The position numbers and the translations under genes are program-made. Shown here one piece after another: positions 10,125-59,576 of a stretch of 64,000 bases of DNA (position 1 is the stretch's first letter; each line of letters starts with the position of its first letter). The notes below the pieces were generated by a model. That model ran no database searches and was not told the DNA's origin. It saw only the letters and a list, made by a program, of their open reading frames with translations. Location: contig JAFUBO010000003.1 in NCBI GenBank assembly GCA_017460175.1, positions 17,150 to 81,149 of the forward strand. The letters are read 5' to 3'. Source of the DNA: Bacilli bacterium (GTDB lineage: Bacteria; Bacillota_I; Bacilli_A; RF39; UBA660).

Positions 10125-10133
10125 GAGGTTTTT

Positions 10134-24742: not shown

Positions 24743-27700
24743 GTGTCATATAAGATTGTTAAAAGTGGCAATTTTAGAGAAAGAAGAAATTTCTCTAGTA
24801 TTCGTAATACCTATGAATTAAAAGATTTATTAGAGATTCAAAAGAAATCTTATAAATGGTTTATTGATGAAGGTATTAAAGAAGTATTCGAGGATTTATT
24901 TCCAGTAGAAAATTTTTCTGGAACATTATCACTTGAATTTGGTGATTATCATTTTGATGAACCTAAATATTCTATTAAAGAAAGTAAAGACCGTGAATCT
25001 ACTTATTCTGCACCATTAAGAGTAGAGGTTAGATTATTTAATAGAGAAACAGGAGAAGTAAAAGAACAAGAAATATTTATGGGTGATATGCCTATAATGA
25101 CTGATTCAGGTACATTTGTTATTAATGGTGCTGAACGTGTTATTGTTTCACAATTAGTTCGTTCTCCTAGTGTTTATTTTAACCATGAAATAGATAAAAA
25201 TGGTAGAGAGTTAATTACAAATCAAATTATACCAAATCGTGGTACATGGTTAGAATTTGAAACTGATGCGAGAGATGTATTATATGTAAGAATTGATAGA
25301 ACAAGAAAAGTTCCAATTACTACATTATTGAGAGCTTTCGGATTAAGTTCAGATGAAGAAATTCTAAAGATGTTTGGAGAAGATGAATATCTTAAGAATA
25401 CTATAGCTAAAGATTCTACTAAGAATACTGATGAAGCTTTAATTGAAATTTATGAAAAATTAAGACCAGGTGAACCAGCTACACTTGATTCATCTAAAAA
25501 CCAAATTATTACTAGATTCTTTGATGAATTTAGATATGATTTATCAAAAGTAGGTCGTTATAAATTTAATCGTAAATTAAATGTTAGTGATCGTTTATTA
25601 AATCAAACTTTAGCTGAAGATGTTACTAATGGTAAGAAAGTAGTACTTGAAAAGGGTACAGTTATTACAAAAAGTAATATCAATGAATTAAATGAAGCTT
25701 TAAAAAATGGATTTGGTGTAGTTGATTCTAAAATCAATGAAGAATTAGATTCATTTGGAAAAGTACAAATAGTTAAAATTTGTGATCCATCTGATAAGAA
25801 GAAAAAATTATTAGTTATTGGAAATGATCAAAATATTGATATTAAAAGATTAACTATAAGTGATGTTTATGCTGCTGTTTCATATTATTTAAACCTTTTA
25901 CATGGTGTAGGTAATTTTGATGAAATCGATCATTTAGGAAACAGACGTATTCGTCAAGTTGGTGAATTATTACAAAACCAATTTAGAATTGGTGTATCTC
26001 GTATGGAAAGAGTAATTCGTGAAAGAATGACTACTCAAGAAATGGAAGAAGTTACTCCTAAAACTTTAATTAATATTAGACCAGTAACTGCTGCTATGAA
26101 AGAGTTCTTTGGTAGTTCACAATTATCTCAATTCATGGATCAAACAAACCCAATTGCTGAGTTAACTAATAAGCGTCGTTTAAGTGCTTTAGGACCAGGT
26201 GGATTATCAAGAGATAGAGCTGGTGTTGAAGTACGTGATGTTAATACTTCTCACTATGGTAGAATTTGTCCAATTGAGTCTCCAGAAGGACCAAATATCG
26301 GACTTATTACATCTTTAGCTTCATATGCTAAAGTTGATGAATATGGATTTATAATGACTCCATATAGAAAAGTAGTTAATAGCCAAATTACTGATGAAGT
26401 ATGTTATTTAACTGCAGATGAAGAATTAGATTATATTATTTCTCAATCTACAGTAGGTACTGATAAATCTAATAAGATTATAGATGAAGAAGTAAATGCT
26501 CGTTTTAGAGGAGAAAATATTTTAGCTAAACCTGAAGATGTTGATTATATAGATGTTAGTCCACAACAAGTTGTATCTGTTACAACAAGTTGTATTCCAT
26601 TTTTGGAACACGATGATGCTACTCGTGCATTGATGGGTGCTAACATGCAACGTCAAGCAATGCCTTTAATTAAAACAGAAGCTCCATTAGTTGGAACTGG
26701 TGTTGAATATATCGCAGCAAAAGATTCTGGTGTAGAAGTAATTGCTAAGAATGATGGTGTTGTTGAATATGTTGATGCAAAAAGAATAGTTGTTAAGACT
26801 AAAGAAGGAAAAGATGAATATAAATTAGCTAACTTTGAACTTGCAAACTCTAGTATTTGTTCACATCAAAGACCAATAGTTCAAGTTGGAGATAAAGTTA
26901 AAGCAGGAGATACAGTATTAGCTGATGGTAACTCTACAGATAAAGGTGAGTTAGCTCTTGGTAAAAACATGACAGTTGCATTCATGACATTTAATGGATA
27001 TAACTATGAAGATGCTGTTATCTTAAATGAAAACTTAGTTAAAGATGATAAGTATACATCACTTCATCTTGAAGATTATGAGATGCAATGTAGAGAAACT
27101 AAATTAGGACCTGAAGAAATTACAAGAGATATTCCTAATGTTAGTGAAGAAGCAAGAAGAAATCTTGATGAAAATGGTATTGTAACAATTGGTACTGAAG
27201 TTAAAGAAGGAGATATCCTTGTTGGTAAAGTTACTCCTAAGGGAATGGCTGAATTAACTTCAGAAGAAAAATTATTACATGCAATATTTGGAGAAAAGAC
27301 TCGTGAAGTTAGAGATACATCACTACGTGTTCCACATGGTGGAGATGGTATCGTTCATGATATTAAGATTTATTCAAGAAAAGATAACGATGAATTACCT
27401 GCAGGTGTTTCTAAAGTAATTCGTGTTTATATAATTCAAAAACGTAAGATTCAAGTTGGAGATAAAATGAGTGGGCGTCATGGTAATAAAGGTGTTATTT
27501 CACTTATTCTTCCACAAGAAGATATGCCATACTTACCAGATGGTACTCCAGTTGATATTATGTTAAATCCACAAGGTGTTCCTTCTCGTATGAACTTCGG
27601 ACAAATTCTTGAAATCCATATGGGTATGGCTTGTAAGAAACTAGGAGTTCATGTTGCTACTCCAGTATTTGATGGAGCTCATATCAGTGATATTCAAGCT

Positions 27701-28372
27701 ATGATGAAAGAGGCTGGAATGGATGAAGATGGTAAAACTGTTTTATATGATGGTAGAACTGGTGAGCCATTCGATCATAGAATATCAGTTGGTGTAATGT
27801 ATATGATTAAACTTCATCACATGGTTGATGATAAACTTCATGCACGTGCTACTGGACCATATTCTTTAGTTACACAACAACCTCTTGGTGGTAAAGCTCA
27901 ATTCGGTGGACAAAGATTTGGTGAAATGGAAGTTTGGGCACTATATGCTTATGGAGCAGCTCATACATTACAAGAAATCTTAACTGTTAAATCAGATGAT
28001 GTATTAGGACGTGTTAAGGTTTACGAATCTATTATTAAAGGTCAAGAAATTAATCAAGCTGGTGTTCCAGAATCATTCAGAGTATTGATGAAAGAATTCC
28101 AAGCATTAGGATTAGATGTTTCAATCATTAATGATGAAGGTGAAACATTACAATTAAAAGAAATAGAAGATGCTGAAGATAAAGAAGATAATAATACTAA
28201 TATTGAAGAAGTTGAATCTCCAGCAACTGAAATAGTAGAAACTCCAGTTTCAGAAGAAAATTCTGAAGAAGATTTTGAAGATGAAGAAGATGAATTCGAT
28301 GAAATTGAAGATGAATTTGAGAAGTTTTCAGAATTTGGGGGATTAGATGATGAGGAAGGAGCTGATATTTAA
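24743..28372 (+). CDS. rpoB: DNA-directed RNA polymerase subunit beta, with about 70-aa acidic C-terminal tail
   Basis: Full-length RpoB homology ('[15 protein letters not shown]', rifampicin cluster region). The C-terminus '[51 protein letters not shown]...' is an unusual extension. Confidence 0.95.
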
Positions 28373-31300
28373 TGATAGATGTTAATAAATTTGAAGCATT
28401 AAAAATCGGAATTGCTTCTCCTGATAAAATAAGAGAATGGTCTTATGGTGAGGTTAAAAAACCAGAAACAATTAACTATCGTACTTTAAGACCAGAACGT
28501 GATGGACTTTTCTGTGAAAAAATATTTGGACCTACTAAGGATTTCGAATGTGCATGTGGAAAGTACAAAAGAGTTAGATATAAAAATATAGTTTGTGATA
28601 GATGTGGAGTTGAAGTTACTCGTTCTAAAGTACGTCGTGAAAGAATGGGACATATTGAACTTGCTACTCCAGTATCACATATTTGGTTCTTTAAAGGTGT
28701 ACCTTCAAGAATGGGATTAGTTCTTGATATGAGTCCAAGAGATTTGGAAGAAGTACTATATTTTGTAAGTTATGTAGTTATAGATAAAGGTAAAGCCCCA
28801 CTTGAAAATAAGCAAACATTATCAGAAAAAGAATACAGAGCTTATTATGAAAAATATGGAACTTCATTCAAAGTTGGAATGGGTGCTGAAGCCATTAAGG
28901 AATTATTAAAGAATGTTGATTTAAAGAAAGAAATTGATGAAATAGAAAAAGAATTAGAAGGTGCTCAAGGACAAAAGAGAACAAGACTTTTAAAGAGATT
29001 AGATGTACTTGATGCTTTCTATAAATCAGGAAATAAACCTGAATGGATGATTATGGATTGTATTCCAGTTATACCTCCTGAATTAAGACCAATGATTCAA
29101 TTAGATGGTGGTAGATTTGCTACATCAGATTTAAATGATTTATATAGACGTGTTATTAACCGTAATAATCGTTTAAAGAAATTAATTGATTTAGGAGCTC
29201 CTGGAATAATCATTCAAAATGAAAAACGTATGCTTCAAGAAGCAGTAGATGCATTATTTGATAATGGTCGTCGTGGAAGAAGTGTAACAGGTGCTGGAAA
29301 CAGACCTCTAAAATCAATTTCATCTATGCTAAAAGGTAAACAAGGTCGTTTCCGTCAAAACTTATTAGGAAAACGTGTTGACTATTCAGGTCGTTCAGTT
29401 ATCGTTGTTGGTCCATCATTAAAGATGTATCAATGTGGTATTCCAAAAGAAATGGCTCTAGAATTATTTAAACCACACGTTATTCATGGATTAGTAAGTA
29501 AAGATATTGCTCATAATATCAAAGCTGCTAAGAGATTAATAGATAATCAAGATCCTGTTGTTTGGGATATAGTAGAAGAAGTTATTAAAGAACATCCAGT
29601 TATGTTAAACCGTGCTCCAACACTACATAGACTTGGTATTCAAGCATTTGAACCAATCTTAGTTGGTGGTAAGGCAATTCGTTTACATCCACTTGTTTGT
29701 CCTGCATTTAACGCTGACTTCGATGGTGACCAAATGGCAGTACATGTTCCACTTTCTGAAGAAGCTCAAGCTGAAGCTAGATTGTTAATGTTAGGTTCTA
29801 ACAACATCCTACATCCAAAAAGTGGAGATCCTATTGTAACTCCTTCACAAGACATGGTTTTAGGTAATTACTATATAACTATGGAAAAAGCTGGTGAAGA
29901 AGGAGAAGGTAGAGTATTTAAAAATAGTAATGAAGCTTTAATGGCTTATGAAAGAAGAGAAATTACTCTTCATACTAGAATTGCTATTCCTGTAAATAGT
30001 TTTAAATATAAATTATTTACTGAACAACAAAAAGGTAAATATTTAGTTACTACTGTTGGTAAAATTAAATTTAATGAAATATTACCTGATACATTTGCAT
30101 ATGTTAATGAACCAACAGATGAAAATATTTCTAATATTACACCTAATAAATATTTCTTAGATATGGGAACTAATATTCCTGAAGCTATTAAAGAAATGCC
30201 TTTAGTTAAAGCTTTTGCTAAGGGAACTCTAGAAAAAATTATTGCTCAAGTATTTAAACGTTATAAAACTACAGAGACATCTACAATGCTTGATGCATTA
30301 AAAGATTTAGGATTTAAGTATTCAACTATAGCTGGTATTACAGTTAGTATGGCTGATGTTGAGATAAGTCAAAAGAAACCTCAAATAGTAGCTGAAGCTC
30401 AAAAGATAGTTGATAATATTAATAAGCAATATAAACGTGGTTTAATTACTGAAGAAGAAAGATTTAATAAAGTAATTGATACATGGAATAATGCTACTGA
30501 CCAAGTTAAAGAAGAACTTGAGGAAGTTTCTAAGAAAGATATTGATAACCCAATCTTTATCATGATGAACTCTAAAGCTCGTGGTAATATTTCAAACTTC
30601 ACACAAGTTGCTGGTATGCGTGGTATTATGGCTAAACCAGATGGTACTCCAGTTGAAATTCCAATTCTTTCAAACTTTATTGAAGGATTATCTGTTGCAG
30701 AATTCTTCTTATCTACACATGGTGCTCGTAAAGGTTCAGCAGATACTGCCTTAAAGACAGCAGATTCTGGATACTTAACAAGACGTTTAGTAGATGTATC
30801 TCAAGATATGATTGTAAGAGAAGATGATTGTGGTACTGATCAAGGTGTAGTTGTAAGAGACTTTGTTAATGAAAAAACTGGTGCAATTATTGAAAGTTTA
30901 AAAGATCGTATTATTGGTAGATTTGCTAATAAGAAAATTATTAATCCTGAAACTAAAGAAGTAATTGTTGAAAGACTTCAAATGATTACTGAAACTTTAG
31001 CAGAGAAAATAATTGCTGCTGGAATTACTGAAGTAGAAATACGTACTATTCTTACATGTAATACAGCTAATGGTGTATGTCAAAAATGTTATGGTAGAAA
31101 CTTAGCTACAGGTAACTTAGTAGAAATTGGTGAAGCTGTCGGAGTTATGGCTGCTCAATCAATTGGTGAACCTGGTACTCAGCTTACAATGCGTACATTC
31201 CACTCAGGTGGAGTTGCTCATGGTGGTGATGCTGACATCACTCAAGGTCTTCCTCGTGTTCAAGAATTATTTGAAGCACGTAACCCTAAAGCTAAAGCTA

Positions 31301-32010
31301 CAATAGCTGAAATTGATGGAGAAATTACTAAGATTAAAGAAGATCATGGTAAGTATAAAATTTCAATTACAAATAAACTTGAAACTAAAGAACATGTTAC
31401 TAACTATGGATCTAAATTATGTGTAGAAAAAGGTGACAAAGTTCACTGTGGAGATAAATTAACTGAAGGAGCTATTTCTCCTAAGGAATTACTTGCAGTA
31501 ACTGATCCAATTACTACACAAGAATATATCTTAAAAGAAGTTCAATATACTTATCGTTCTCAAGGTGTTGATATTTCAGATAAACATATTGAAATTATTG
31601 CTCGTAGAATGATTAGTAAAATTAGAATTGTTGATGGTGGAGAAACTAAATTCTTACCAGGTAGTCTTGTTAATTTCCGTGAGTTTACTGATGGAAATAA
31701 AGAAGCTATTATTAATGGTAAAAAACCTGCTGTTGGAAAACCAATCTTACTTGGTATTACTAAGGCAGCATTAGAGACTGACTCATTCTTATCTGCAGCT
31801 TCATTCCAAGAAACAACTCGTATCTTAACAGATGCTGCTATCAAAGGTAAGGTAGATCCATTATCAGGATTAAAAGAAAATGTTATCATTGGTAAATTGA
31901 TCCCTGCTGGTACTGGAAGTAAAGCTTATCGTGATGTAGACTATGAATTAAAGAGTGAATTTATTGATGAAGAACCATTAGAACAATTAGAAGATCAATT
32001 CATGGAATAA
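28372..32010 (+). CDS. rpoC: DNA-directed RNA polymerase subunit beta'
   Basis: '[14 protein letters not shown]' catalytic motif, N-terminal Zn-binding cysteines. 1212 aa. Confidence 0.95.
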
Positions 32011-46854: not shown

Positions 46855-47451
46855 ATGAAAAACGAAAAACAAAAGAATATAGTGTTAGCTGTATTATTAG
46901 TAGCAGTTGTTACATTAACTATTGCTTATGCATTATTAAGTGCAACATTAACTATTAATGCACAAGCTACAGTTAAAGGAGCTAATTGGGATGTTCATTT
47001 CCAAGAAAAAAGTGATCAATCTGCAATCTGTGTAGCATCTTCAAAAACTGGAGCTGCAACAACTACTGCAGAAGTTAAAACACAACCAACTGTTAGTAAT
47101 ACAAGTTTTACTGGTTTAGCAGCTGATCTTAAATTACCTGGTGATAAAGTAGTTTGTACATGGCAAGTAACTAATGCAGGTTCAATCGATGCTAAATTAG
47201 CTACTTATACTGCACCAGCTTTAACTTACGCTGGAGATAGTGCTGACGTTACTAAAGTAACAGGTAAAATTAACACTACTTTAACTGTTGATGGTGCTAC
47301 ACCAGCAAATGGTGATGTATTACCAGCAACTACTGGTAACACTAAAGATGTAGTATTAACTATCGAATTTGATCCAAATGCTACAGAATTACCATCTCAA
47401 GATGTAACAGTAACAGTAGCAAGTGAAACATTTGTATACGAACAAAATTAA
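46855..47451 (+). CDS. TasA/camelysin (peptidase M73)-family secreted fibre-subunit-like protein with SipW-cognate-type signal peptide
   Basis: Signal peptide 'KNIVLAVLLVAVVTLTIAYALLSATLTINA'. Motifs 'SNTSFTGLAADL' (compare camelysin 'SNNTFAAGTLDL') and 'LKLPGDKVVCTWQVTNAGSIDAKL' (compare TasA 'LKPGDKLTKDFQFENNGSLAIKEV', CalY 'LKPGDSVKKEFLLQNSGSLTIKDV'). T/A/G/V-rich, translationally optimal codons. Confidence 0.5.
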   Translation: MKNEKQKNIVLAVLLVAVVTLTIAYALLSATLTINAQATVKGANWDVHFQEKSDQSAICVASSKTGAATTTAEVKTQPTVSNTSFTGLAADLKLPGDKVVCTWQVTNAGSIDAKLATYTAPALTYAGDSADVTKVTGKINTTLTVDGATPANGDVLPATTGNTKDVVLTIEFDPNATELPSQDVTVTVASETFVYEQN

Positions 47452-47470: not shown

Positions 47471-47500
47471 TCCAGGATGCTTAGCATACTGGATTTTCTT
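47471..47500 (+). terminator. imperfect hairpin plus T-rich tract between subunit gene and peptidase gene (possible attenuator / partial terminator)
   Basis: 'ccaggatgcttagcatactgg' near-palindrome followed by 'attttctt'. Confidence 0.3.
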
Positions 47501-47518
47501 GGTAAAGGGAGTGAAAAA

Positions 47519-48646
47519 GTGAAAACTAGTCATAAAAAGGCACTAGCTATACTTATGTTTATAGCTTTAGTTAGTATTGTTAACTTTTTCTTTCCCTTTA
47601 TACTTGATAGTAATAGGCATTTAATATTACTTGGGTTAGTCCTTGTTATATTATATTTATTACTAGGTATTGATATTAAGGGAAAGTCTAATAATAGACT
47701 TATAATAAGAGATATTCTTATTTATATAACTTTTTATTACCTATTAATATATTTATTAGGATTATTAACAGGATTTGTAAGAACAATTTATAGTTATACA
47801 ATATCAAATCTAGTAATAAATATAATTCCAAGTATATTGACAATATTTGGAGTTGAGTTAATTCGTAATCAATTAATTAATAAAACTAATAAGAAAAAAA
47901 TTATAGTAGTATTATCTTGTATAGTATTTATATTATTTGAAATAAGTATTAATTTTCAATATTATAATCTTACTATAAAAGATGAAATATATTTATTTAT
48001 AGGATTACTTGTAGCTTCAAGTATATCTAAAAATATACTAATGACAGTAATAGCTATGAAAACAGATTATTTACCTGCGGTAGTATATAGGCTATTAATT
48101 GAAACATTAGATTTTGTAGTATTAATTCAACCTGATTTGGGTCCATATTTAAATTCAGTAGTAGCAATAATGTTACCAATATTAACTGCGATAATGCTTA
48201 TAAATATGGGCAAGAAAGTTAAAGATACACCTGAGAAAGTAAAGAAAGGTAGTAAATTTTATATAGTTTTAGTTATTATTTTATCTATATTAGTTTTACT
48301 TAATTCAGGATTGTTAAAATTTCAAACTTTAGTAATAGGTTCACAATCAATGCTTCCTATGATAGATAAAGGTGATGTGGTTTTGATTGAAAGATTAAAT
48401 AAAGAAGAGAAAGATAAAGTAAAATTAGGAGAAATTCTAGTATATAGATATGATAATAAGATAATTTGTCATAGGGTAGTTAAAGTATCAAAACGAGATA
48501 ATGGTACTTTCTATAAGACAAAAGGTGATAATAATGACCAAGATGATAAAATTGTTCTTTCTAGGAAAGAAGTTATGGGGAAGGTAATATATAGAATTAA
48601 ATATATTGGTCTACCAAGTGTATGGTTAAATGAATTATTTAATTAG
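47519..48646 (+). CDS. polytopic membrane domain fused to C-terminal SipW-type signal peptidase I domain
   Basis: Likely GTG start at 47519 after RBS 'agggag' (the ORF track's ATG 47477 lacks an RBS). About 280 aa with 8 or more TM segments, then 'LVIGSQSMLPMIDKGDVVLIERL' (Ser box), 'ICHRVVKV' (His), 'KTKGDNNDQDD' box. This is the same motif set as the SipW at 747-1352. Confidence 0.55.
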   Translation: MKTSHKKALAILMFIALVSIVNFFFPFILDSNRHLILLGLVLVILYLLLGIDIKGKSNNRLIIRDILIYITFYYLLIYLLGLLTGFVRTIYSYTISNLVINIIPSILTIFGVELIRNQLINKTNKKKIIVVLSCIVFILFEISINFQYYNLTIKDEIYLFIGLLVASSISKNILMTVIAMKTDYLPAVVYRLLIETLDFVVLIQPDLGPYLNSVVAIMLPILTAIMLINMGKKVKDTPEKVKKGSKFYIVLVIILSILVLLNSGLLKFQTLVIGSQSMLPMIDKGDVVLIERLNKEEKDKVKLGEILVYRYDNKIICHRVVKVSKRDNGTFYKTKGDNNDQDDKIVLSRKEVMGKVIYRIKYIGLPSVWLNELFN

Positions 48647-48658: not shown

Positions 48659-49663
48659 ATGAAATTGAAAAAGAAAGAGTTAATATTATTAATAGCAACT
48701 ATAGTATTTACAGTAGCAGGATTGGTGTTTTACTATGAATCTAAAAATATAGTAACTACATCGTTAATACCATATGATGAACAAGGAACAGCTAACTATA
48801 AAGTTCATTTAAGTGATAATACATATTATAATAAAGATTACTTAGATGAAGGAATGCAATATATATCTAGTATTATTGATTATGTTGATTTGGATTTTAG
48901 ATATATTGCTAATTACCAAGGTATAAAGAATTATAAGGTAGATAAAAATATAGTTGCTAATATAAAAATTACTGATTTAGATGATAATAATAAAGTAATT
49001 TATACAAAGACAGAGACATTAAAAGAAGAACATGCTGATTTAGATAAATTATCAATTAATGATTCTATAAAGATTGATTATGTTAAGTATAATGACTTAG
49101 TAAATGAAATAAAAAGTAAATATGCAATAAGTGCTAAATCTACTTTAAGTGTTTCATATAATATTATTTATTCTTCTGAAGAAGAAGGTTTAAGTACAGC
49201 TAAAAAGATGGTTGTAGATATACCTTTATCTGAGCAAATGATTAATATTACTAAGGAAAATATTGCTAGAAATAGTGATGTTTATGTTGGCAAATCTACA
49301 AATTCACCAATAAATGGTATTATGTCATTACTTATGATATTAATGTTTATATTTGCACTTGCTAGTTTAATATTCTTTATTATGAGAGTAAAAGATAGAA
49401 TTAGTAAAGAAAGTAAATATGATAGATTTATTAATAAAGTATTAAGAGAGTATGATTCTTATATTACTGAAACTAAAGAAGATAATTATATTACTGGAAA
49501 ATCTGTAATAGAAATAGGTAGTTTTAAGGAATTATTAGATGTAAGAAACAATATTGATAAGACTATTGTTTATACAAAAATTGATGATAATACAAGTAAA
49601 TTTCAAATTATTGATGAAGAAGTTTATGAGTATGTAGCTAAAAGAGAAGAAATGGATAAATAA
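48659..49663 (+). CDS. bitopic membrane protein (N-in signal anchor, about 190-aa extracytoplasmic domain, second TM, cytoplasmic tail)
   Basis: TM1 'LILLIATIVFTVAGLVFYY', TM2 'IMSLLMILMFIFALASLIFFIM'. Translationally coupled to the peptidase fusion. No known motif. Possible TapA-like accessory or anchor. Confidence 0.3.
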   Translation: MKLKKKELILLIATIVFTVAGLVFYYESKNIVTTSLIPYDEQGTANYKVHLSDNTYYNKDYLDEGMQYISSIIDYVDLDFRYIANYQGIKNYKVDKNIVANIKITDLDDNNKVIYTKTETLKEEHADLDKLSINDSIKIDYVKYNDLVNEIKSKYAISAKSTLSVSYNIIYSSEEEGLSTAKKMVVDIPLSEQMINITKENIARNSDVYVGKSTNSPINGIMSLLMILMFIFALASLIFFIMRVKDRISKESKYDRFINKVLREYDSYITETKEDNYITGKSVIEIGSFKELLDVRNNIDKTIVYTKIDDNTSKFQIIDEEVYEYVAKREEMDK

Positions 49664-49788: not shown

Positions 49789-49817
49789 ATTGAAAAAAAA
49801 GTCGAAATTTGGTATCA
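49789..49817 (+). promoter_or_regulatory. sigma-A promoter with extended -10 upstream of giant surface protein gene
   Basis: TTGAAA-17 nt-TGgTATCAT, followed by RBS 'gaaggaggtg' 7 nt before ATG 49857. Confidence 0.45.
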
Positions 49818-49856
49818 TTAATAATAGGGTAGTGTCATAGAAGGAGGTGCTAGAAA

Positions 49857-52800
49857 ATGCGTAAAAAAATATTGTTATTACTTAGCATGTTTTTAATTAT
49901 GATTACAACATATGCATATTCAGCACTATCAACTTCTTTGGCAATAACTTCGGAGGTAAATATTAGACCATTAGCTGATATAAGAGTTAATGGAATAGCA
50001 TTAGATAGTACTCATGATTCTACTGTTAAATATGAAAGTACTTATTCAAGAAGTATAATATCTAGTGGTTTTGTATTACCAAATGCAGGATCAAGCATTA
50101 GTTATAGAGTTCATATAGATAATACAGGTGATGTGGATTACTGTATTTATGGTATTTCTACAAATACTACTAGTACAGGTTTAAATGTAGATACAGGAAG
50201 TTATAACTTACAAGATATAATACCTGCTAAAAGTTCTTTAGATTTAATAATAACTTATACTACATCTAATCCAAGTAGTGAACCAATAAATGTAATGAAT
50301 CAATTTGATTTTAGAAAAGTATTCCATGTAAGTTATAACACTGGAACTTCTCAAACAATACCTGAACAAATTAAATACGAAAGAGTGGATTTAACTTTAA
50401 CAAATACAAAACCTACTAAGCCTGGTAATACATTTAGTAGATGGAATACTAAGAGTGATGGAACAGGAGTTAATTATAATAGCGGAGCTACTTATACAGT
50501 GGATGAAGATGTAATATTATATGCACAATATACATTACAAACTTATAATATCACTTATGTGCTTGATGGTGGAACTAATAGTTCTAATAACCCAAGTACT
50601 TATACAACAAATTCAAATGATATTATATTAGATGATGCTAGTAAGACAGGATATGATTTTCAAGGATGGACTGGTAATGGTACTACGACACCAACAAAAA
50701 ATTTAGTATTACCAACTGGTTCTACAGGAGATAAGACATTTACTGCACACTTTAGTGATGTTACAGATCCAACAGTTACTGTAAAAGATCAAACAGGTAC
50801 TATAGATTATTTAACAACTGCTTATAATGTAGATGCAGCATGGGATGCTACTAGTGCAACTCCTACTGTATATATTAATGCAGAAGATACAGGTAGTGGT
50901 GTTAAGAAAATAGAATATGTATATAGTAATAGCACTACAGTACCTACAACTGGATGGACTGAAACAACTAATGGAGCTTTAAGTCAAGTAAAAGAACGTG
51001 GTAGTTATTATTTACATGTAAGAGTAACAGATAATGAAGATAATGTAACTACAGTAACAACTAAACCAATAACAGTAAGATTTAGAGTAGCTTATTATGA
51101 CGATTATAGTAAGAGTACAACTATATCAGAAAATCAATATTATACAGGAACAGCACTAACTTCTAGAACACCAACAGCAGTTACTGGTTATACATTTGAT
51201 GGTTGGTATAGTGATACAGCATTAACTCATAAAGTTGTTAATGCCAACACAAGTTATACACCAACTGCTTCAACAAAATTATATGGTAAATGGACATCTA
51301 CAAATTACACAATAAGTTATGCAATGAATAATGGACAAAATAATGAAAATAATCCAACAAATTATAATAGTGAAAGTGAAGCAATAACATTACAAGCACC
51401 AACTAAGACATTGATATTTAAAGGAAATTATAATGCAACAAGTGGAGCAAATGCTTCAAGCGGTAGTGGTGTAGCTATTGGATCTAATACAACAGCAAAT
51501 CAAACATTTACAGGTTGGACAGGAAGCAATGGAAATACTCCACAAACTACTGTAACAATACCAGCAGGTTCAACTGGAGATAAAGAATATACAGCACATT
51601 GGAGTGCAGTTGCACCTAATAAGTTACCAAAGGTAGAGAGAACAGGATATAGATGTGGATGGAATACAAGTAATAGTGGAACAACAATAGAGTATGCAAG
51701 TGAAGCTACAAATTATCCAACAAGTGCAATAAGTGAAGGTCAATCATCAACAGTTAATTTATATGCGGTATGTATACCAAACACATATAATATTTCATAT
51801 ACAATGAATGGTGGAACTAATCCAAGTACAAAACCAACAACTGCAACATATGATAGTGATGTTAATATAAGTAATCCAACAAAGATATTTACAGTTAATT
51901 TAGATGCAAATAATCAAGAGGCTGATATTAAAATTCAAGGTGGATATGATGTAATAAGTGTAAGTCAATCACAAACATTTGCAGGATGGAGTAGTACTAC
52001 AATAGGAAGTAATGCTAAGAGTGGTACAAGTACTAAACCAAGTGGAGCTTGGGATGGTAGTGCTACTACTAATAGTCATTTTATGAATTTAGTAGAATCT
52101 GGAACAGTAACAATGCTAGCAAACTGGACACCAGTAGATATTACTTTACCAAATGTTACTAAGACAGGATATTCATGTAAATTTAATACAAGTTCTAATG
52201 GAACAGGTACAGATTATGCAAGTGGAGCAACATATTCACCAAGTGCTACAGCAAATAGTGATACATTATATGCAATTTGTAGTCCAAATTCTTATACAGT
52301 AACTGCAAATGCAAATGGTGGAGATATACCTTCTACATCAGGTTGGACAGGAACAGGTGGAAGTTCTACTAAGTCAATAGTATTTGATACAAATTACGGG
52401 ACACTTCCAACTCCGACTAAAACTAGTTATACATTTGATGGTTGGTATAGAAATATAGTAAAAGCAGTAGATTTTAAAGATGCTACAGGTATTAATTCCG
52501 ATACAGGTGAACCAATTCATGCATCAAATTATTTTGCAACACCTAACTTAGTACCTATAAAATCTGGAATTACATTATATTCTAATTTAGAAATATGTGG
52601 AATATATTCATATGATTCAAATGGTGACTTTATAAAGAGAGAATCTAATTATTCTACAACTCATTCAATTTCAGCTAATGCTGCTTATATAAGAATTGAA
52701 GTTAAAAAGCAAGAAGGAGATATGAATTATTACTTAAATAATTTAGTAATAAGTGAATATCAAAATGCAGCTGATATAACTGATATAAGTAGTCAATTAA

Positions 52801-55800
52801 CAAGTTCAACAGTTTTAAAAATAGCTGTTGATCATAGTATTTTTGCTAAGTGGAGTATTAATAATATATCAACACCAGCAATAAGTGGTGGAACTACTAA
52901 AATATATGGTTCAAGTGATACAACTTTAACTTGTTCAGAAAATACAAGCTATGGACAAGGTATAACTAAATATTATTCATTTGGTTACGCTACAACTAAT
53001 GATGGTACACCAAGTAATTGGACTGAACCATCTACTTCAAATACATTTACTGTTGCAGAAAATGAATATGTAGGACAAAGATGGTATTCATGTAGAGTAT
53101 ATGCAACTGATGGTGTACAAACTACTTCAATAGTAGCAAGTTCACCATCAGCAGATACAGAACTAACAATAAATAATGCAAAAATTGTTTATAATCCTAA
53201 TGATTGTGGAACAATAAGTGGAACAAATCCTGCTTATGTTAAGAAAGGATCAACTGGAGTATACACTGGTATAAGAAATACTACAGCAGGAACAATAGCA
53301 ACTGCAACTCAAAGCGGATATACATTTACAGGATGGTATGATGGAACAACAAAAGTAATTAATGCAGATGGAACGATAGTTCCAAGTGCAGGTAATTGGA
53401 CAGATTCTTCTAGAAATTGGTTAATTACTGAAGATAAAACATTAGCTGCTCATTGCAGCGGTAATTCATTTACTATTGATTATGCAATGAACAATGGTCA
53501 AAATAATGCAAGTAATCCAACAAATTATAATATTACTGATACACCTATAACTTTAGGTCAACCAACAAAGACATTAACATTTATTGGACATACTAATTCA
53601 ACTAGTGGTGCTTATGGTACTGGAGTAACTATTGGATCTAATACAACAGCAAATCAAACATTTACAGGTTGGACAGGAAGTAATGGAAACACTCCACAAA
53701 CTAGTGTTACAATTACTGAGGAAACAGCTGGTAATAAGAATTATACAGCTCACTGGAGTGCAGTAGCTCCTGATACATTACCAACAGTAACAAGAAAGGG
53801 TTATACTTGCGGATGGAGTACAAGTAATAGTGGAACTACTATTGAATATGCAAGTGGTGCTACAAATTATCCAACGTCTTTGATTACAGAAGATATGAGT
53901 GCTACAGTTAACTTATATGCTGTATGTACTCCAAATATCTATTCAATAACATTAGATAATCAAGGTGCTGATACACCAGGAACTACAAAAGTTTATTATC
54001 AATATAATCAAACAAAAACTATTGATGGTACTAAGTGTTATTATTATTTAGATAGAGAATTAACTCAGTGTTTAAGAGGTGGATATTATATTGATAAACC
54101 TGCAAAAACAGGAAATACATTTGGAGGATATTATTCAAAAGTAAATGGTGCAGGAACAAGATATGTTACAACTTCTGCTGGATTTACTAATAGTATTTAT
54201 CAAAAAGCTCCTATTGATATAGATAGTAGTTATACAGATACAGATAATATTCCTTTATATGCTAAATGGACTCCTTATGCGTATAATATTTCTTATACGT
54301 TGAATGGTGGAAATGATCCAAGTCCAAAACCAACAAAAGGAAATTATGGTAGTGATGTAGTTATTGGTAATCCAACAAAGACATTTACAATTAACATTAA
54401 TGCAAATAGTCAAGGTGCAACAATAAGTTCAAATACTGTTACAAAGTCAATAACATTTGCAGGATGGAATAGTACAACTATTTCTGATACAGCAAAAACT
54501 GGTACAAGTGCTGATCCAACTACAACATGGGATGGTAGTGCTACTACTAATACATACTTTAAAAATTTAAGAAATACAAATGGAGCAACTGCTACAATGA
54601 TTGCTAATTGGGCACCTACGGATATAACATTACCAACTATTGAAAAAACTGGTTATACATGTGGATTTGCTACAAGTAGTAGTGGATCAATAGCATATGA
54701 AAGTGGTGGTACATATACATCTACAAGTGCATCAAGTGTAACTTTATATGCAAAATGTACTAAGGAAAATTATACAATTACTTATAGTATGAATAATGGT
54801 ACAAATAATAGTAATCCAACTAGTTATAATGTTGAAAGTAGTGCTATTACATTAGCAGCACCAACTAAGACATTAACATTTGTAGGACATTCTAATTCAA
54901 CAAGTGGAGCTGAAGGAACTGCTGTATCTATTGGATCTAATACAACACAGGATCAAACATTTGCAGGTTGGACAGGAAGTAATGGAAATACTCCACAAAC
55001 TGCTGTAACAATAGCGACAGGTTCAACTGGAAATAAAGAATATACTGCTCACTGGACAGGAGTAGCGGCAACACTTCCTACTGTAACTAAAAAAGGATAT
55101 ACATGTGGATGGAGTACAAGTAGTAGTGGAACTACTATCGAATATGAAAGCGGTGGAACATTCCCAGTAAGTGCTATTACTGAGGATATGTCTACTACAG
55201 TAAATTTATATGCTGTATGTACAAGAAATAAGATAAAATTAACATTAGATCATGATGGTGGTACATCATCAACACAATACATGTGGTATTATTATGGTAT
55301 TAATACATTCTATTCAGATGAGACATGTACAAATATAATAACTTCTGTACCAGTACCAATTAAAACAGGTTATTCATTCTCTAGGTATGTAGCTGATGGT
55401 ACTAGTGGTGGATCTTCAGGAGAACGTTATATTTATAGTGATGGTACTTTTGCATCCGATTTATCTAGTGATATATGGAAGGATGCGACATTAACTGCAG
55501 AATGGAGTGCTAGATCTTATAGTATTTCATACACAATGAATGGTGGAGTTAATCCAGATCCTAGACCAACTAGTGCTACATATGATAATGCTGTAGAAAT
55601 TGGTACAACAGCACAAACAACAAAAACATTTACAGTTAATATTAATGCAAATAGCCAAGGAGCAACATTAAGTGATACTAGTTCAAGTGCAGCATTAACA
55701 TTTACAGGATGGAATAGTTCTACACTTGGTTCTACTGCATTAACTAGTAGTGATGGAACTACATATACAGCTTGGGATGGTACTTTAACGACAAATAAAT

Positions 55801-57626
55801 ACTTTAAGAATTTAAGAGAATCTGGAACAGCAACATTGATTGCTAACTGGACAGGTTCTGTACCATTACCAACTATTGAAAAAACTGGATATGTATGTAA
55901 ATTTAATACAAATTCACATGGTACTGGAACTGATTATGAAAGTGGAGGAATTTATACTCCAACTAATGGAACAGCTACAAGTACTACATTGTATGCTATT
56001 TGTAGTAAAGATGTTTATACAATTAGTTATGCAATGAATAATGGACAAAATAATCCTAATAATCCAACAACTTATAGTGTTGATGATAGTGATATTACAT
56101 TACAAGCACCAACTAAAACACTAATATTTAAAGGAAACTATAATGCAACAAGTGGGGCCAATGGTACATCTACTTATATAAACAGTATAGGTACTGATAC
56201 AACAGCAGATCAAACATTTGCTGGATGGACAGGAAGTAATGGAAATACTCCACAAACTAGTGTTACAATACTAACAGGTTCAACTGGAAATAAAGAATAT
56301 ACAGCACACTGGACAGGAGTAGCTGGAACAGTACCAACAATAACTCCAAAGACTAATTATATTTGTGGATGGAGTACAAGTAATAGTGGAACTACAATTG
56401 AGATAGCAAGTGGTGGAAGTTATGATGTTAGTAGAATAACTGAAGACATGAGTTCAACAGTTAACTTATATGCCGTATGTAGAAAAAAAGCATATAGTAT
56501 TAAATTTAATGCTAACGGTGGAACTGGAACTATGACAAATCAATCAATGACATTTGGAACTGTTGCTACATTAAAACAAAATGCATTCACAAGGTCAGGT
56601 TATGAATTTGTAGGATGGACTCGTAATAGTGATGGTACTGGAGTTATTTACACTGATTTTAATGGTAGAGCAGCAGCTTATTATGATCAAGAACAAATAA
56701 TGAGGGATTTGACTGAAACAGATGGTGATATAGTTAACTTATATGCACAGTGGAGAAAAACTAGTGGAGAAATTATATATAATGCTAATGGTGGAGCAGG
56801 AACAATGGCAAATCAAACAATCCCATTAGATGGATCATCTATTAATTTAACAGGAAATGCTTATTCTACTTCTCCAGGATATATATTTAATAAATGGAAC
56901 ACTAAAAGTGATGGAACAGGTTACAGTTATTCTAACGGTGCTTCTATGACAATTATGCCTAATATGTTTATAAATACTTCTAATCCATCATTACCAACTT
57001 CTACAATTTCTTATGCTTTAGCTGGTCAATGGGGTAAAACTTCAGATGAGCTTACTCCGTCATTAATATCAGTAAATAATAGCGGATTGCCTGTTAATAA
57101 AGCTTTTGTAATACCTCAAAATACAACTTCTAAACCATATTATTTATACTTAAATTATATGCTTACAGAAGTTGAGGAATATTATATTATAAGTATATAT
57201 GCGAAAGGTTCTGGTAATTTAATAATTAAAGCTGAAGCAGAGGGAAGTAGTACTAATGGTAAAACAAGTAGTTTTACATTGACAAATGATTGGCAAAGGT
57301 ATGAAATGAAGATTTATCCTACAAGGAGTATTAGAACGTCGGATAATGATGATGATGTATATGTTAATATCCATAAACAATTTAATGTTTACTTTGGTAC
57401 AGAATCTGGAAATGGTGAAGTTCAAATAGCAGGAGCTAAAATGGAAAAAGGATCTACTCATGCAACTGAATATATTGATTCTAATGCACAAATAAACTTA
57501 TATGCTCAATGGAGTAGAGTAATGGCTGAAAATATTTATTATGAACCTAAGTATGCTCCAAGTACTTGCCATGATGTTCAATGTACATTAGATTATATAG
57601 ATAGTATACTTAATGGTAATAGTTAA
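49857..57626 (+). CDS. giant (2589 aa) secreted surface protein: TasA-like N-terminal domain, at least 20 Listeria-Bacteroides (Flg_new) repeats, C-terminal beta-sandwich (CBM-like) domain, no LPXTG
   Basis: Signal/donor-like N-terminus 'ILLLLSMFLIMITTYAYSALSTSLAITS'. 'VLPNAGSSISYRVHIDNTGDVDY' is a TasA-like motif. Recurrent 'Y.I.Y..NGG....(GY.F.GW).....LYA.W' repeat units (for example 'YSIKFNANGGTGTMTNQ...SGYEFVGWTRNSDGTG...VNLYAQW'). Confidence 0.7.
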   Translation: MRKKILLLLSMFLIMITTYAYSALSTSLAITSEVNIRPLADIRVNGIALDSTHDSTVKYESTYSRSIISSGFVLPNAGSSISYRVHIDNTGDVDYCIYGISTNTTSTGLNVDTGSYNLQDIIPAKSSLDLIITYTTSNPSSEPINVMNQFDFRKVFHVSYNTGTSQTIPEQIKYERVDLTLTNTKPTKPGNTFSRWNTKSDGTGVNYNSGATYTVDEDVILYAQYTLQTYNITYVLDGGTNSSNNPSTYTTNSNDIILDDASKTGYDFQGWTGNGTTTPTKNLVLPTGSTGDKTFTAHFSDVTDPTVTVKDQTGTIDYLTTAYNVDAAWDATSATPTVYINAEDTGSGVKKIEYVYSNSTTVPTTGWTETTNGALSQVKERGSYYLHVRVTDNEDNVTTVTTKPITVRFRVAYYDDYSKSTTISENQYYTGTALTSRTPTAVTGYTFDGWYSDTALTHKVVNANTSYTPTASTKLYGKWTSTNYTISYAMNNGQNNENNPTNYNSESEAITLQAPTKTLIFKGNYNATSGANASSGSGVAIGSNTTANQTFTGWTGSNGNTPQTTVTIPAGSTGDKEYTAHWSAVAPNKLPKVERTGYRCGWNTSNSGTTIEYASEATNYPTSAISEGQSSTVNLYAVCIPNTYNISYTMNGGTNPSTKPTTATYDSDVNISNPTKIFTVNLDANNQEADIKIQGGYDVISVSQSQTFAGWSSTTIGSNAKSGTSTKPSGAWDGSATTNSHFMNLVESGTVTMLANWTPVDITLPNVTKTGYSCKFNTSSNGTGTDYASGATYSPSATANSDTLYAICSPNSYTVTANANGGDIPSTSGWTGTGGSSTKSIVFDTNYGTLPTPTKTSYTFDGWYRNIVKAVDFKDATGINSDTGEPIHASNYFATPNLVPIKSGITLYSNLEICGIYSYDSNGDFIKRESNYSTTHSISANAAYIRIEVKKQEGDMNYYLNNLVISEYQNAADITDISSQLTSSTVLKIAVDHSIFAKWSINNISTPAISGGTTKIYGSSDTTLTCSENTSYGQGITKYYSFGYATTNDGTPSNWTEPSTSNTFTVAENEYVGQRWYSCRVYATDGVQTTSIVASSPSADTELTINNAKIVYNPNDCGTISGTNPAYVKKGSTGVYTGIRNTTAGTIATATQSGYTFTGWYDGTTKVINADGTIVPSAGNWTDSSRNWLITEDKTLAAHCSGNSFTIDYAMNNGQNNASNPTNYNITDTPITLGQPTKTLTFIGHTNSTSGAYGTGVTIGSNTTANQTFTGWTGSNGNTPQTSVTITEETAGNKNYTAHWSAVAPDTLPTVTRKGYTCGWSTSNSGTTIEYASGATNYPTSLITEDMSATVNLYAVCTPNIYSITLDNQGADTPGTTKVYYQYNQTKTIDGTKCYYYLDRELTQCLRGGYYIDKPAKTGNTFGGYYSKVNGAGTRYVTTSAGFTNSIYQKAPIDIDSSYTDTDNIPLYAKWTPYAYNISYTLNGGNDPSPKPTKGNYGSDVVIGNPTKTFTININANSQGATISSNTVTKSITFAGWNSTTISDTAKTGTSADPTTTWDGSATTNTYFKNLRNTNGATATMIANWAPTDITLPTIEKTGYTCGFATSSSGSIAYESGGTYTSTSASSVTLYAKCTKENYTITYSMNNGTNNSNPTSYNVESSAITLAAPTKTLTFVGHSNSTSGAEGTAVSIGSNTTQDQTFAGWTGSNGNTPQTAVTIATGSTGNKEYTAHWTGVAATLPTVTKKGYTCGWSTSSSGTTIEYESGGTFPVSAITEDMSTTVNLYAVCTRNKIKLTLDHDGGTSSTQYMWYYYGINTFYSDETCTNIITSVPVPIKTGYSFSRYVADGTSGGSSGERYIYSDGTFASDLSSDIWKDATLTAEWSARSYSISYTMNGGVNPDPRPTSATYDNAVEIGTTAQTTKTFTVNINANSQGATLSDTSSSAALTFTGWNSSTLGSTALTSSDGTTYTAWDGTLTTNKYFKNLRESGTATLIANWTGSVPLPTIEKTGYVCKFNTNSHGTGTDYESGGIYTPTNGTATSTTLYAICSKDVYTISYAMNNGQNNPNNPTTYSVDDSDITLQAPTKTLIFKGNYNATSGANGTSTYINSIGTDTTADQTFAGWTGSNGNTPQTSVTILTGSTGNKEYTAHWTGVAGTVPTITPKTNYICGWSTSNSGTTIEIASGGSYDVSRITEDMSSTVNLYAVCRKKAYSIKFNANGGTGTMTNQSMTFGTVATLKQNAFTRSGYEFVGWTRNSDGTGVIYTDFNGRAAAYYDQEQIMRDLTETDGDIVNLYAQWRKTSGEIIYNANGGAGTMANQTIPLDGSSINLTGNAYSTSPGYIFNKWNTKSDGTGYSYSNGASMTIMPNMFINTSNPSLPTSTISYALAGQWGKTSDELTPSLISVNNSGLPVNKAFVIPQNTTSKPYYLYLNYMLTEVEEYYIISIYAKGSGNLIIKAEAEGSSTNGKTSSFTLTNDWQRYEMKIYPTRSIRTSDNDDDVYVNIHKQFNVYFGTESGNGEVQIAGAKMEKGSTHATEYIDSNAQINLYAQWSRVMAENIYYEPKYAPSTCHDVQCTLDYIDSILNGNS
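51305..51780 (+). repeat. intragenic about 480-nt repeat, family A copy 1 (other copies at about 53470-53940, 54770-55220, 56015-56480)
   Basis: Long identical runs shared between copies, for example 'caaacatttacaggttggacaggaag.aatggaaa.actccacaaact' and 'agttatgcaatgaataatggacaaaataat'. Confidence 0.6.
51785..52280 (+). repeat. intragenic about 500-nt repeat, family B copy 1 (other copies at about 54285-54780 and 55515-56010)
   Basis: Encodes 'Y.ISYTMNGG.NP...PT...Y...V.IGNPTK.FT.N..AN.Q.A......FAGW.S.T......T.....W.G..TTN..F.NL......T...ANW.P.DITLP...KTGY.C.F.T...G'. Shared DNA strings between copies. Confidence 0.55.
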
Positions 57627-57645
57627 TCTATATGAATAAGATATA

Positions 57646-57674
57646 AAAACAGCATAATATATGCTGTTTTTATT
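57646..57674 (+). terminator. intrinsic terminator of giant gene
   Basis: 'aaaacagcat-aatat-atgctgtttt' followed by 'tatt'. Confidence 0.55.
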
Positions 57675-57749: not shown

Positions 57750-58385
57750 TTATTTTATTTTCATTGCATATAAACGACCTGTTGTTCCAATTGCACTTCC
57801 ACTGTTTTGATAAGCACATAGATAAATTGTTCCACTAGTGTCTGCTATATCATATGGATAACTAGTAAATCCAATACGTGTATTTTGTCCGTTTACTGCA
57901 GGAACAATAGTATGAGCTGCTGCACTAAATTCAGTATCTGGACAAGAACTAGAATATGCTAGATATACTCTTCTATGACCTGTTGCGTTTGATGTAAAAT
58001 TCGCATTACCATTAATAATCCATCTACCTGGAGTTAATGTAATTTGAGCAATTCTAGTTTTAGTATCATTTGCTACTGAAACTTCATTTGGTTCTGCTGC
58101 TATACGTTCTCCTAGACTATTATATGCATTTACATAATTAATTATATCTTGTTGAAATTTAGTAGATACTTCAAGAGCATCTAACGCTGATTCTACTTCT
58201 TCAAATGGCAATTGAGAATTAGTATTATCATAACTAACCTTGTCACTATTAAAGTATATTGTAGCAGCGTATCCTATAGAAATGGAACCTATTATCATAC
58301 CTACAATGGAAAATAATATAGGTTGTATACTGTTACGTATAATTTCTTTTAATTTTATTTTCTTTTCATTATTTATTATTTTCAT
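57750..58385 (-). CDS. small secreted protein, paralog 1 of TasA-motif family (N-terminal signal anchor, C-terminal beta-rich domain ending GRLYAMKIK)
   Basis: 211 aa. 'IGSISIGYAATIYFNSDKVSYDNTNSQL' N-terminus, 'LTPGRWIINGNANFTSNATGHRRV' motif, 'YLCAYQNSG...GRLYAMKIK' C-terminus. Paralogous to the next two ORFs. Confidence 0.45.
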   Translation of the reverse strand: MKIINNEKKIKLKEIIRNSIQPILFSIVGMIIGSISIGYAATIYFNSDKVSYDNTNSQLPFEEVESALDALEVSTKFQQDIINYVNAYNSLGERIAAEPNEVSVANDTKTRIAQITLTPGRWIINGNANFTSNATGHRRVYLAYSSSCPDTEFSAAAHTIVPAVNGQNTRIGFTSYPYDIADTSGTIYLCAYQNSGSAIGTTGRLYAMKIK

Positions 58386-58393
58386 ATTATCAC

Positions 58394-59035
58394 CTATTTT
58401 ACATTAATTGCATATAAACGACCAAGAGTCGATAAAGCATTTGGACTAGTTTGATATCCACATAAATAATAAGTACTTGAAGCAGTAGAAACATAAGGTG
58501 CATTAAAAGAAAGATATGTATAGGTACCATTTACTGCGTTTTCTATAACAAACCACGAGTTACCAAGAATACCATCACAGTCACTATTTCTTGATATCCA
58601 TATTTCTCTATAACCTGTTGCGTTTGAATTGTATCTTGCAGCACCATTAATCATCCATTTACCTGCAGGTAGTGTAACACTGGCAAGTTGAGTAGCTGTA
58701 CCAGAAGGTACTGAAACAGCTGCTGGTTCAATAGATCTTAGTTGACCTTTAGGTGTATAAGCAGTTTCTAATGCAGCAGCATTATTCGTAATATCAACAT
58801 CATCACATAATTCATCTATTGCACTTTGTACATCAGTTGATGATAATGAACTATTAGTATTGTCATAGCCTACATTAATAGAATCATAATCATAAAGTGT
58901 AGCATATCCAACTGTAGTTGATCCTATTACTGCTCCTAAAATTCCTAATATCATTAGTGTTAAATTTCTTATTATAAAATTTTTTGATTTTTTTCTTTTC
59001 CATCTATTAATTTTATAATTTTTAAACATATTCAT
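58394..59035 (-). CDS. small secreted protein, paralog 2 (ends GRLYAINVK)
   Basis: 213 aa. 'VGYATLYDYDSINVGYDNTNSSLSSTDVQSAIDEL', 'LPAGKWMINGAARYNSNATGYREI', 'YLCGYQTSPN...GRLYAINVK'. Confidence 0.45.
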   Translation of the reverse strand: MNMFKNYKINRWKRKKSKNFIIRNLTLMILGILGAVIGSTTVGYATLYDYDSINVGYDNTNSSLSSTDVQSAIDELCDDVDITNNAAALETAYTPKGQLRSIEPAAVSVPSGTATQLASVTLPAGKWMINGAARYNSNATGYREIWISRNSDCDGILGNSWFVIENAVNGTYTYLSFNAPYVSTASSTYYLCGYQTSPNALSTLGRLYAINVK

Positions 59036-59054
59036 ATTATCACCTTTTTATAAT

Positions 59055-59576
59055 TTATTTTATTCTTATAGCATACATACGACCACCAGTTTCTAAAGTT
59101 GTTCCACTGTTTTGAAAACCACATAAATAATATGTTGTGGTTGTTACAGGTGTTTGGAAACCAGAAAATGAAATATTTGTATCTGTTAATGCAGCATTAC
59201 TATTTTTATAGAAAGCTGCTCCGTATGGTGAAGAACAAGTTGAATTACGCGATAGGAATATTTGTCTATAACCTGTTTGGTTGAATTCAAAATTTGCTGC
59301 TCCTTCAATAAACCATGTTCCACTTGGAACTTCAATACTCGCAAGTTTAGTAGATGTATTAGAAGATAATGAAATTGGATCTGCTAAATTACGTACCATA
59401 TCTCCAAAGTCATTATCATAATGATCTTTATAAGTATTATAAATAACAACATCTTCTCCATGATTCTCAATGAAACAATTACTAGATGAAGCACTATAAC
59501 CTAATCTTAATGCTCCGCCTATTATTGTGCATATTAATACAACAATTATATATTTTATATTTTTCTTAAATTTCAT
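59055..59576 (-). CDS. small secreted protein, paralog 3 (ends GRMYAIRIK)
   Basis: 173 aa. 'VPSGTWFIEGAANFEFNQTGYRQI', 'YYLCGFQNSG...GRMYAIRIK'. Shorter N-terminal region. Confidence 0.45.
   Translation of the reverse strand: MKFKKNIKYIIVVLICTIIGGALRLGYSASSSNCFIENHGEDVVIYNTYKDHYDNDFGDMVRNLADPISLSSNTSTKLASIEVPSGTWFIEGAANFEFNQTGYRQIFLSRNSTCSSPYGAAFYKNSNAALTDTNISFSGFQTPVTTTTYYLCGFQNSGTTLETGGRMYAIRIK

Follow-up and report, generated by a model that had tools for sequence, protein, structure and literature searches.

A giant InlB B-repeat-containing protein gene of a Bacilli bacterium with an interleaved array of diverged modules

Described repeat proteins and the giant gene

Bacterial proteins of the Periscope class carry long and highly identical tandem repeats, and the identity of these repeats at the DNA level has been proposed to drive intragenic recombination (PMC8201768). 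Here we compare with this and other described systems a giant gene that lies in a stretch of 64,000 nucleotides (nt) of an uncultured and strongly AT-rich Bacilli bacterium from gut or rumen (contig JAFUBO010000003.1; the whole stretch is called the window hereafter, and positions refer to it unless another record is named). The gene is one single open reading frame (ORF) of 2,589 codons (49857-57626, + strand), which encodes a protein of 2,589 amino acids (aa) and holds all the copies of two families of repeats, modules A (four copies) and B (three copies). An earlier reading of the sequence, the original prediction, had taken these copies to be near-identical units of recent origin. We put at about 85% the probability that the seven repeats are old paralogous copies of two composite modules in a secreted giant protein of the Flg_new type. 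The observation behind the original prediction was confirmed in part and its interpretation supported in part; the feature had been overstated and is ordinary in kind, the window gene being an ordinary, anciently duplicated module array in a further giant exoprotein with InlB B-repeats.

Like the Periscope proteins (Rib/alpha C, SasG/Aap, Sgo_0707 SHIRT and Esp), the giant protein is very long, predicted to be secreted and made mostly of repeated globular modules, the length of its orthologues varies widely, and two near-clonal assemblies differ in length exactly at a repeat-to-repeat junction. Unlike the tandem repeats of high identity that characterize that class, its repeats are 70-78% identical, interleaved as A, B and spacers (x), and spaced 1.2-2.2 kb apart. 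Neither was a recognised anchor found, as Pfam and NCBIfam scans of the whole protein and of its C-terminal segments gave no LPXTG, SLH or other anchor family (the C-terminus ends ...LDYIDSILNGNS). In addition, there is no stepwise series of copy numbers but one variant (on scaffold L002, see below), possibly an artefact, in two strain-level sequences.

The resemblance to the InlB B-repeat (Listeria-Bacteroides repeat) proteins lies first in the whole sequence, which passes the thresholds of both PF09479, the Flg_new family (112.2 bits against a threshold of 27, in six stretches), and TIGR02543 (122.2 bits against 20.95). The protein is identical to MBQ9018843.1, from a metagenome-assembled genome (MAG) of a Bacilli bacterium, which NCBI names InlB B-repeat-containing protein, and the exact 2,589-aa sequence was found on 3-4 contigs, the contigs with the full-length form measuring 87-777 kb. 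Each module had been described in the original prediction as built from Flg_new-type repeats, which holds for the protein as a whole, whereas isolated modules remain below the PF09479 gathering threshold (18.9 bits for A1 and 13.7 bits for B1, against 27). A profile built from the four A copies and searched against 1.84 billion representative proteins matched 4,356 of them, in most cases only at profile positions 1-35 and 63-99, corresponding to the halves of the canonical Flg_new unit; far fewer of the listed proteins had A modules of full length. Because of this pattern of matches by halves, module A appears to be a canonical Flg_new (InlB B-repeat) unit that is interrupted by about 27 inserted aa, with a half unit behind it. 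This composite build of A and B, the sub-threshold scores of the single modules and the lack of a sequence match between either module and any solved structure distinguish the giant protein from the InlB B-repeat proteins. Full-length A modules also occur in unrelated giants such as P0022 and P0084, which have a different N-terminus and PF13350 among their precomputed Pfam families, and the module therefore seems to move between unrelated gene backbones.

About half of the predicted fibrillar adhesin-like proteins of a published survey have no known anchor (PMC8286594). The giant protein likewise has none, and it shares with these proteins a long, stalk-like array of domains with interspersed non-repeat domains, possibly ligand-binding ones. 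It differs from them in that no adhesive domain scored above threshold in its segments, the best match being to CBM_4_9 (E = 0.02). From its sequence, the gene product, which has a hydrophobic helix at its N-terminus, is predicted to be a secreted InlB B-repeat (Flg_new) protein and may be located at the cell surface or act in adhesion.

Divergence and age of the A and B modules

Comparison of the gene with itself confirmed the two families (self-BLASTN E from 1e-57 to 1e-152) at the places given in the original prediction, with A copies of 450-468 nt (about 150-156 aa) and B copies of 477-495 nt (about 159-165 aa). All on the + strand, the modules located by this self-comparison and the stretches between them follow in the order A1 (51306-51773; aa 484-639), B1 (51786-52280; aa 644-808), a middle region of 396 aa outside the A and B modules (52281-53468; aa 809-1204), A2 (53469-53927; aa 1205-1357), spacer x2 of 118 aa (53928-54281), B2 (54282-54758; aa 1476-1634), A3 (54771-55220; aa 1639-1788), spacer x3 of 99 aa (55221-55517), B3 (55518-56003; aa 1888-2049) and A4 (56016-56480; aa 2054-2208). 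Pfam searches with segments of the middle region pointed to non-repeat domains flanked by two Flg_new-like units, and a similar stretch was seen in one orthologue (P0004, compared by eye). Spacer x2 is a very divergent Flg_new-like unit (Flg_new E = 0.21), and in comparison with x3, delimited by a segment scan, it is 24% identical (E = 0.007). The pair B2-A3 aligns with the pair B3-A4 across 991 nt at 72.6% identity (BLASTN), so that part of the array stems from the duplication of a unit of about 1.25 kb.

The copies had been claimed to be near-identical over units of 480-500 nt, and this claim failed. Codon-aligned nucleotide identity is 74-78% among the A copies and 70-72% among the B copies, with amino-acid identities of 69-75% and 57-59%, respectively. 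Within its 7.8 kb, the gene has no more than nine exact direct repeats with a length of 24 nt or more (52, 33, 30, 29, 29, 25, 25, 25 and 25 nt), the longest being a perfect block of 52 nt that A1 (51475-51526, + strand) shares with A2 (53629-53680, + strand). Tandem Repeats Finder reported nothing in the giant gene, and a tandem-repeat reading was rejected on that account. Both strings quoted in the original prediction are present, one of 48 nt in four occurrences with 0-3 mismatches (0 occurrences expected in shuffled sequences) and a 17-mer in three occurrences with 0-2 mismatches. The 48-nt core, 94-100% identical across all four A copies, encodes the invariant peptide QTF[T/A]GWTGSNGNTPQT; it is a local conserved island that does not represent the whole unit, and near-identity had been claimed because this short core was generalised to 480 nt. 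The self-comparison of 49857-57626 that had been proposed as a check hence yields repeats that are real at the nucleotide level (BLASTN) but only 70-78% identical.

Synonymous distances between the copies (dS, Nei-Gojobori method) range between 0.52 and 0.70, and the ratios of non-synonymous to synonymous distances (dN/dS) between 0.27 and 0.60. Where two copies have the same residue, their codons agree in a proportion of 0.68-0.79, against the 0.58-0.60 expected at saturation, that is, with fully randomised synonymous choice under the codon usage of the gene itself. Since codon identity is little above saturation, most of the remaining DNA similarity is due to the conservation of the protein together with an extremely AT-biased codon usage rather than to homogenisation. 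Profile hidden Markov models of A and B were also built, and modules were then located in the proteins obtained from the homologue search. Module A1 is 78% identical in amino acids to module P0003_915 and only 70-73% identical to its own paralogues A2-A4; for the B copies, identity is 57-60% among themselves and reaches 61% with modules of other proteins. The copies in the window are thus as near to modules of other organisms (up to 78%) as to their own paralogues (69-75% for A), which excludes recent duplication or homogenisation of whole modules. The claim of recent duplication or ongoing gene conversion, which had been drawn from the supposed DNA identity, is not supported by any of these measures.

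Taken further, the original prediction would make the gene a contingency locus, whose near-identical, recent or converted copies would be expanded and contracted frequently by RecA. The 48-nt core and the perfect 52-nt block are features that such a locus would have; there is also one deletion variant, on L002, and a sister-species orthologue carries repeats of 1.26-1.37 kb at 95-98% identity, of which one close strain has a single copy. For the window gene this view is refuted both by the identity of whole modules (70-78%) and by the dS values of 0.5-0.7. Moreover, modules of other species are as close to the paralogues as these are to one another, Tandem Repeats Finder was blank, and the part from A2 to A4 (aa 1275-2589) is the same in two assemblies. 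We consider a contingency locus of this kind to be highly improbable here.

Some results weigh against an old origin of the copies or against parts of it. In the module phylogeny, a neighbour-joining tree groups A2, A3 and A4 (and B1-B3) weakly together, and some of the duplications may be lineage-specific, if old, rather than ancient. The codon identity exceeds the saturation expectation by 0.10-0.20, synonymous sites being therefore not fully saturated. The perfect run of 52 nt, whose surroundings are about 77% identical, may mark a short tract of gene conversion. Finally, the AlphaFold2 (AF2) model of A1-B1 was unusable (predicted local distance difference test score, pLDDT, of 49, from an alignment of 4 sequences), and a fold derived from Flg_new is suggested by sequence only. 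As a separate candidate, gene conversion at the 52-nt block was tried and set aside: by a rough estimate, 17 identical codons in an invariant peptide are not clearly beyond chance after multiple testing.

Returning to old paralogous copies, we propose that both single modules and a unit of about 1.25 kb (B-A or A-x-B) were duplicated well before the split of the present strains. While purifying selection acted on them (dN/dS 0.3-0.6), the copies would since have diverged until 70-78% of their nucleotides were identical, perfect identity being left in a few short stretches where the peptide does not vary. The 52-nt block of A1 and A2 may be enough for a rare recombination of the RecA type or by slippage, or to mislead a scaffolder at low coverage, and over longer time scales whole modules are gained, lost and exchanged at the orthologous locus. 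Genes of the Rib/alpha-C/SasG type expand and contract at high rates; the window gene is not a near-identical tandem array, and expansion and contraction at a high rate should not be expected of it. There is in this a caution for the scanning of genomes: at about 22-34% G+C, repeats conserved at the protein level look deceptively alike in the DNA, and a conserved core of 48 nt can pass for the near-identity of a unit of 480 nt.

A shorter form of the gene and the architecture of its orthologues

The homologue search found a protein of 1,871 aa (P0002) encoded on scaffold L002, from another sample (BioSample SAMN15829986), which together with the full-length form makes up the only two strain-level sequences in the collections. 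The alignment was re-segmented at the junction, because BLAST otherwise runs through the paralogous A1 and A2, and L002 then differs from the window by about 6 single-nucleotide polymorphisms (SNPs) and one gap of 10 N in 14.7 kb (flanks about 99.95% identical), with a single SNP within the giant gene. Absent from L002 are 2,154 nt (51527-53680, + strand; 718 codons, in frame), a length equal to the A1-to-A2 spacing, and the boundary can be placed anywhere in the 52-nt block. The single A copy of L002, in the place of A1, is a hybrid, with all 68 informative sites on the left of A1 type and all 76 on the right of A2 type, the switch falling inside the block 51475-51526 (identical to 53629-53680), and the hybrid reading frame stays open as far as the native stop. 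Both assemblies have the same C-terminal 1,315 aa (aa 1275-2589; the A2-x-B2-A3-x-B3-A4 part), and their comparison gave no stepwise expansion or contraction as in true tandem-repeat adhesins.

The missing segment comprises the tail of A1, B1, the whole 396-aa middle region and the head of A2, and since B1 and the middle region are lost with it, the difference concerns more than the length of a stalk. Of the stalk length variation that had been predicted there is accordingly one length variant, real or artefact, and no stepwise series. The prediction that the gene is prone to recombination and a hazard for assembly was derived from a wrong premise, and yet L002 does lose 2,154 nt at the 52-nt block; one of the two predicted events, recombination or a failure of assembly, must have occurred in it.

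Proteins shorter or longer than about 0.55-1.75 times the query length were apparently not listed in the search with the whole protein, and sub-queries with the interior and with the C-terminal half were run because fragments could not show in it. With the interior 719 aa no near-identical separate fragment was found in the protein collection (best match 40-58% identical), and neither the interior nor the C-terminal half retrieved further near-identical sequences. An exact 35-mer scan of the Joint Genome Institute (JGI) metagenomes gave 0 matches, a plasmid search none, and the GTDB representatives yielded only one relative, from the sister species. In the N-terminal domain, the identity of the JGI loci does not exceed 66%; one of these metagenome orthologues (L017, 10001-10141) is interrupted in frame by a stop at codon 32, which falls within the conserved AYSALSTSLAIS motif, and may be a pseudogene or contain a sequencing error.

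The orthologues that share the N-terminal motif (n = 13) range between 1,423 and 4,457 aa and have 0-6 A and 0-4 B modules. In the sister species, a rumen Erysipelotrichaceae of the RUG13398-like kind, L003 contains an intragenic direct repeat of 1,260 nt at 95% identity (6784-8043 and 9271-10530 of that record), and L007 one of 1,372 nt at 98% identity (1784-3155 and 4271-5642), with a perfect run of 1,241 nt, on one contig. Locus L004 is 99.1% identical to L007, yet it has one copy of the repeat, and it shows two further deletions, one of 108 nt flanked by microhomology and one of about 223 nt that lies in the Gly-rich 3' portion. Near-identical repeats are therefore real in relatives and absent from the window gene. 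One contig (L006) stops where an A module begins, and 9 of the 10 other contigs of known full length end inside the gene, which is a weak indication, long genes being large targets for contig ends. The locus is architecturally hypervariable and hard to assemble, and we see in it a conserved giant exoprotein gene of rumen and gut Bacilli whose architecture varies in this way.

Whether the form on L002 is a real allele depends on how its junction arose. A RecA-type or slipped-strand recombination of A1 with A2 at the 52-nt block may have deleted the 2,154 nt, leaving a shorter protein with a hybrid A module and without either B1 or the middle region. There is a single switch, clean, in frame and placed at the longest identity block, the ORF is unbroken to the native stop, no near-identical separate interior fragment is in the protein collection, module gain and loss is evident among the orthologues, and assemblers seldom create k-mers that are absent from the reads; all of this argues for a real deletion. 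Against it, about 6 SNPs in 14.7 kb leave little time, and an event that is rare at about 77% identity needs strong selection or luck, as recombination drops steeply with rising sequence divergence. Besides, the short form was seen in only one sample, and its scaffold is short with a gap of 10 N, suggesting low coverage. That run of N, at 4880-4889 of L002 (about 48208 in the window), lies inside the signal-peptidase gene and marks L002 as a gapped scaffold, which weakens structural inference from it.

The same junction would result if, at low coverage, contigs had been broken at the shared 52-mer and joined with the interior dropped. L002 is gapped and of 14.7 kb only, against the 87-777 kb of the contigs with the full-length form, and its junction coincides with the longest exact k-mer shared within the gene. 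The many orthologue contigs that end inside the gene (9 of 10, and L006 at the start of an A module) point in the same direction, and the perfect repeat of 1,241 nt inside the single contig of L007 indicates that the handling of repeats in these assemblies is not to be taken at face value. Reads of 100-150 nt would nevertheless span a repeat of 52 nt, and an interior fragment from the L002 sample is not on record. SPIRE reports the use of MEGAHIT with default settings (PMC10767986); the record name of L002 is SPIRE-like, yet the N gap implies scaffolding. We would give an assembly or scaffolding artefact an even chance and a real allele a chance close to even, so that real deletion and misassembly are about equally likely as the mechanism. 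A single identity block of 52 nt can in this way yield a clean in-frame "allele" whose reality is not judgeable from the assembly alone, and comparisons of the lengths of giant repeat proteins among MAGs are for this reason unsafe without the reads.

Upstream genes and a possible fibre

Besides small pilins and a tip or adhesin, the loci of TasA-like, Abp and Tafi fibres encode a DUF5305 protein, a putative accessory of signal peptidase I (PMC11821415; PMC12337348; bioRxiv 10.64898/2026.01.04.697558). Upstream of the giant gene, all on the + strand, lie genes for a small exported protein of 198 aa, a candidate fibre subunit (46855-47451), for a signal peptidase I of the archaeal/SipW type (47477-48646; TIGR02228, 82.2 bits against 51.85; Peptidase_S24) and for a DUF5305 protein (48659-49663; PF17231, 57.3 bits against 29), and this set is kept in 5 of 5 related loci (L002, L003, L004, L005 and L007). 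The locus resembles those of TasA, Abp (AbpX) and Tafi in that the signal peptidase and DUF5305 genes are adjacent, in that a 198-aa exported protein is followed by a large protein, and in that the predicted N-terminal beta-sandwich of the latter shares with the former the motif behind the helix. Ahead of its catalytic part (aa 261-383), the signal peptidase has a polytopic N-terminal extension about 260 aa long and rich in hydrophobic segments, a feature not usual among type I signal peptidases of bacteria. The start codon of this gene is uncertain: its predicted product is 365-389 aa long depending on the gene call, and in L002 the longest ORF is interrupted by a stop at codon 21.

The N-terminal part of the giant protein (49857-50366, + strand) consists of a helix (aa 2-27), the motif AYSALSTSLAITSEV and a predicted beta-sandwich domain; AF2 modelled helix and sandwich with a pLDDT of 81.8, and motif listing and alignment found this part conserved in the 13 orthologues. 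The corresponding motif of the 198-aa protein, IAYALLSATLTINAQ, resembles it, and an hhalign comparison of the N-terminal domain with the family of the 198-aa protein gave a probability of 78% (E = 1.7e-5, 79 columns), which is suggestive only, while BLASTP between the two gave nothing. The 198-aa protein has a weak match to TIGR04089 (16 bits against a threshold of 60) and no sequence match in the PDB. Unlike in the described fibre loci, neither this protein nor the N-terminal domain matches the TasA, camelysin or DUF1102 models, and Foldseek of the N-domain model against the PDB returned only generic sandwiches with TM-scores of about 0.2-0.3 and no TasA or Abp protein. Published tip proteins, moreover, are not Flg_new arrays of several thousand residues, and the suggested link to a TasA/Abp-type fibre is not described for Flg_new giants.

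With these differences in view, we think it unlikely, if worth naming, that the giant protein is the tip or adhesin subunit of an uncharacterised TasA/Abp-like fibre in Erysipelotrichaceae-like Bacilli of rumen and gut; searches by family and by fold brought no confirmation. By analogy, cleavage behind the N-terminal helix would be the task of a dedicated polytopic signal peptidase I with its DUF5305 partner, the AYSALSTSLAITSEV strand and the beta-sandwich would insert into a fibre of the 198-aa protein, and a cassette of A and B modules with islands of perfect identity might be shuffled within and between genes to give strain-specific distal ends. Were this so, the deletion in L002 would be a real and selected variant of the displayed part.

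Several signals around the giant gene are consensus matches. A Shine-Dalgarno-like GAAGGAGGTG (49840-49849, + strand), graded strong on reading the sequence, has its 3' end 7 nt before the ATG; a promoter-like TTGAAA-17-TATCAT with a TG (49790-49818, + strand) came from a consensus scan; and a terminator-like hairpin (57643-57673, + strand) follows the stop codon. Between the giant gene and a PP-loop (ATP_bind_3) gene stand three small genes on the - strand (57750-59576; 211, 213 and 173 aa) without any family match; the trio is kept in L002, and the loci of the sister species have a single gene of 163 aa instead. The giant gene has a G+C content of 31-33%, slightly above that of its neighbours, and a lower GC skew than they have. 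The window as a whole is ordinary chromosome of about 22-34% G+C, with many co-directional ORFs and a strongly positive GC skew on the + strand, and it includes, within 24743-32010 and its surroundings, two ORFs of about 1,210 aa each, presumably rpoB and rpoC, for which this size is expected.

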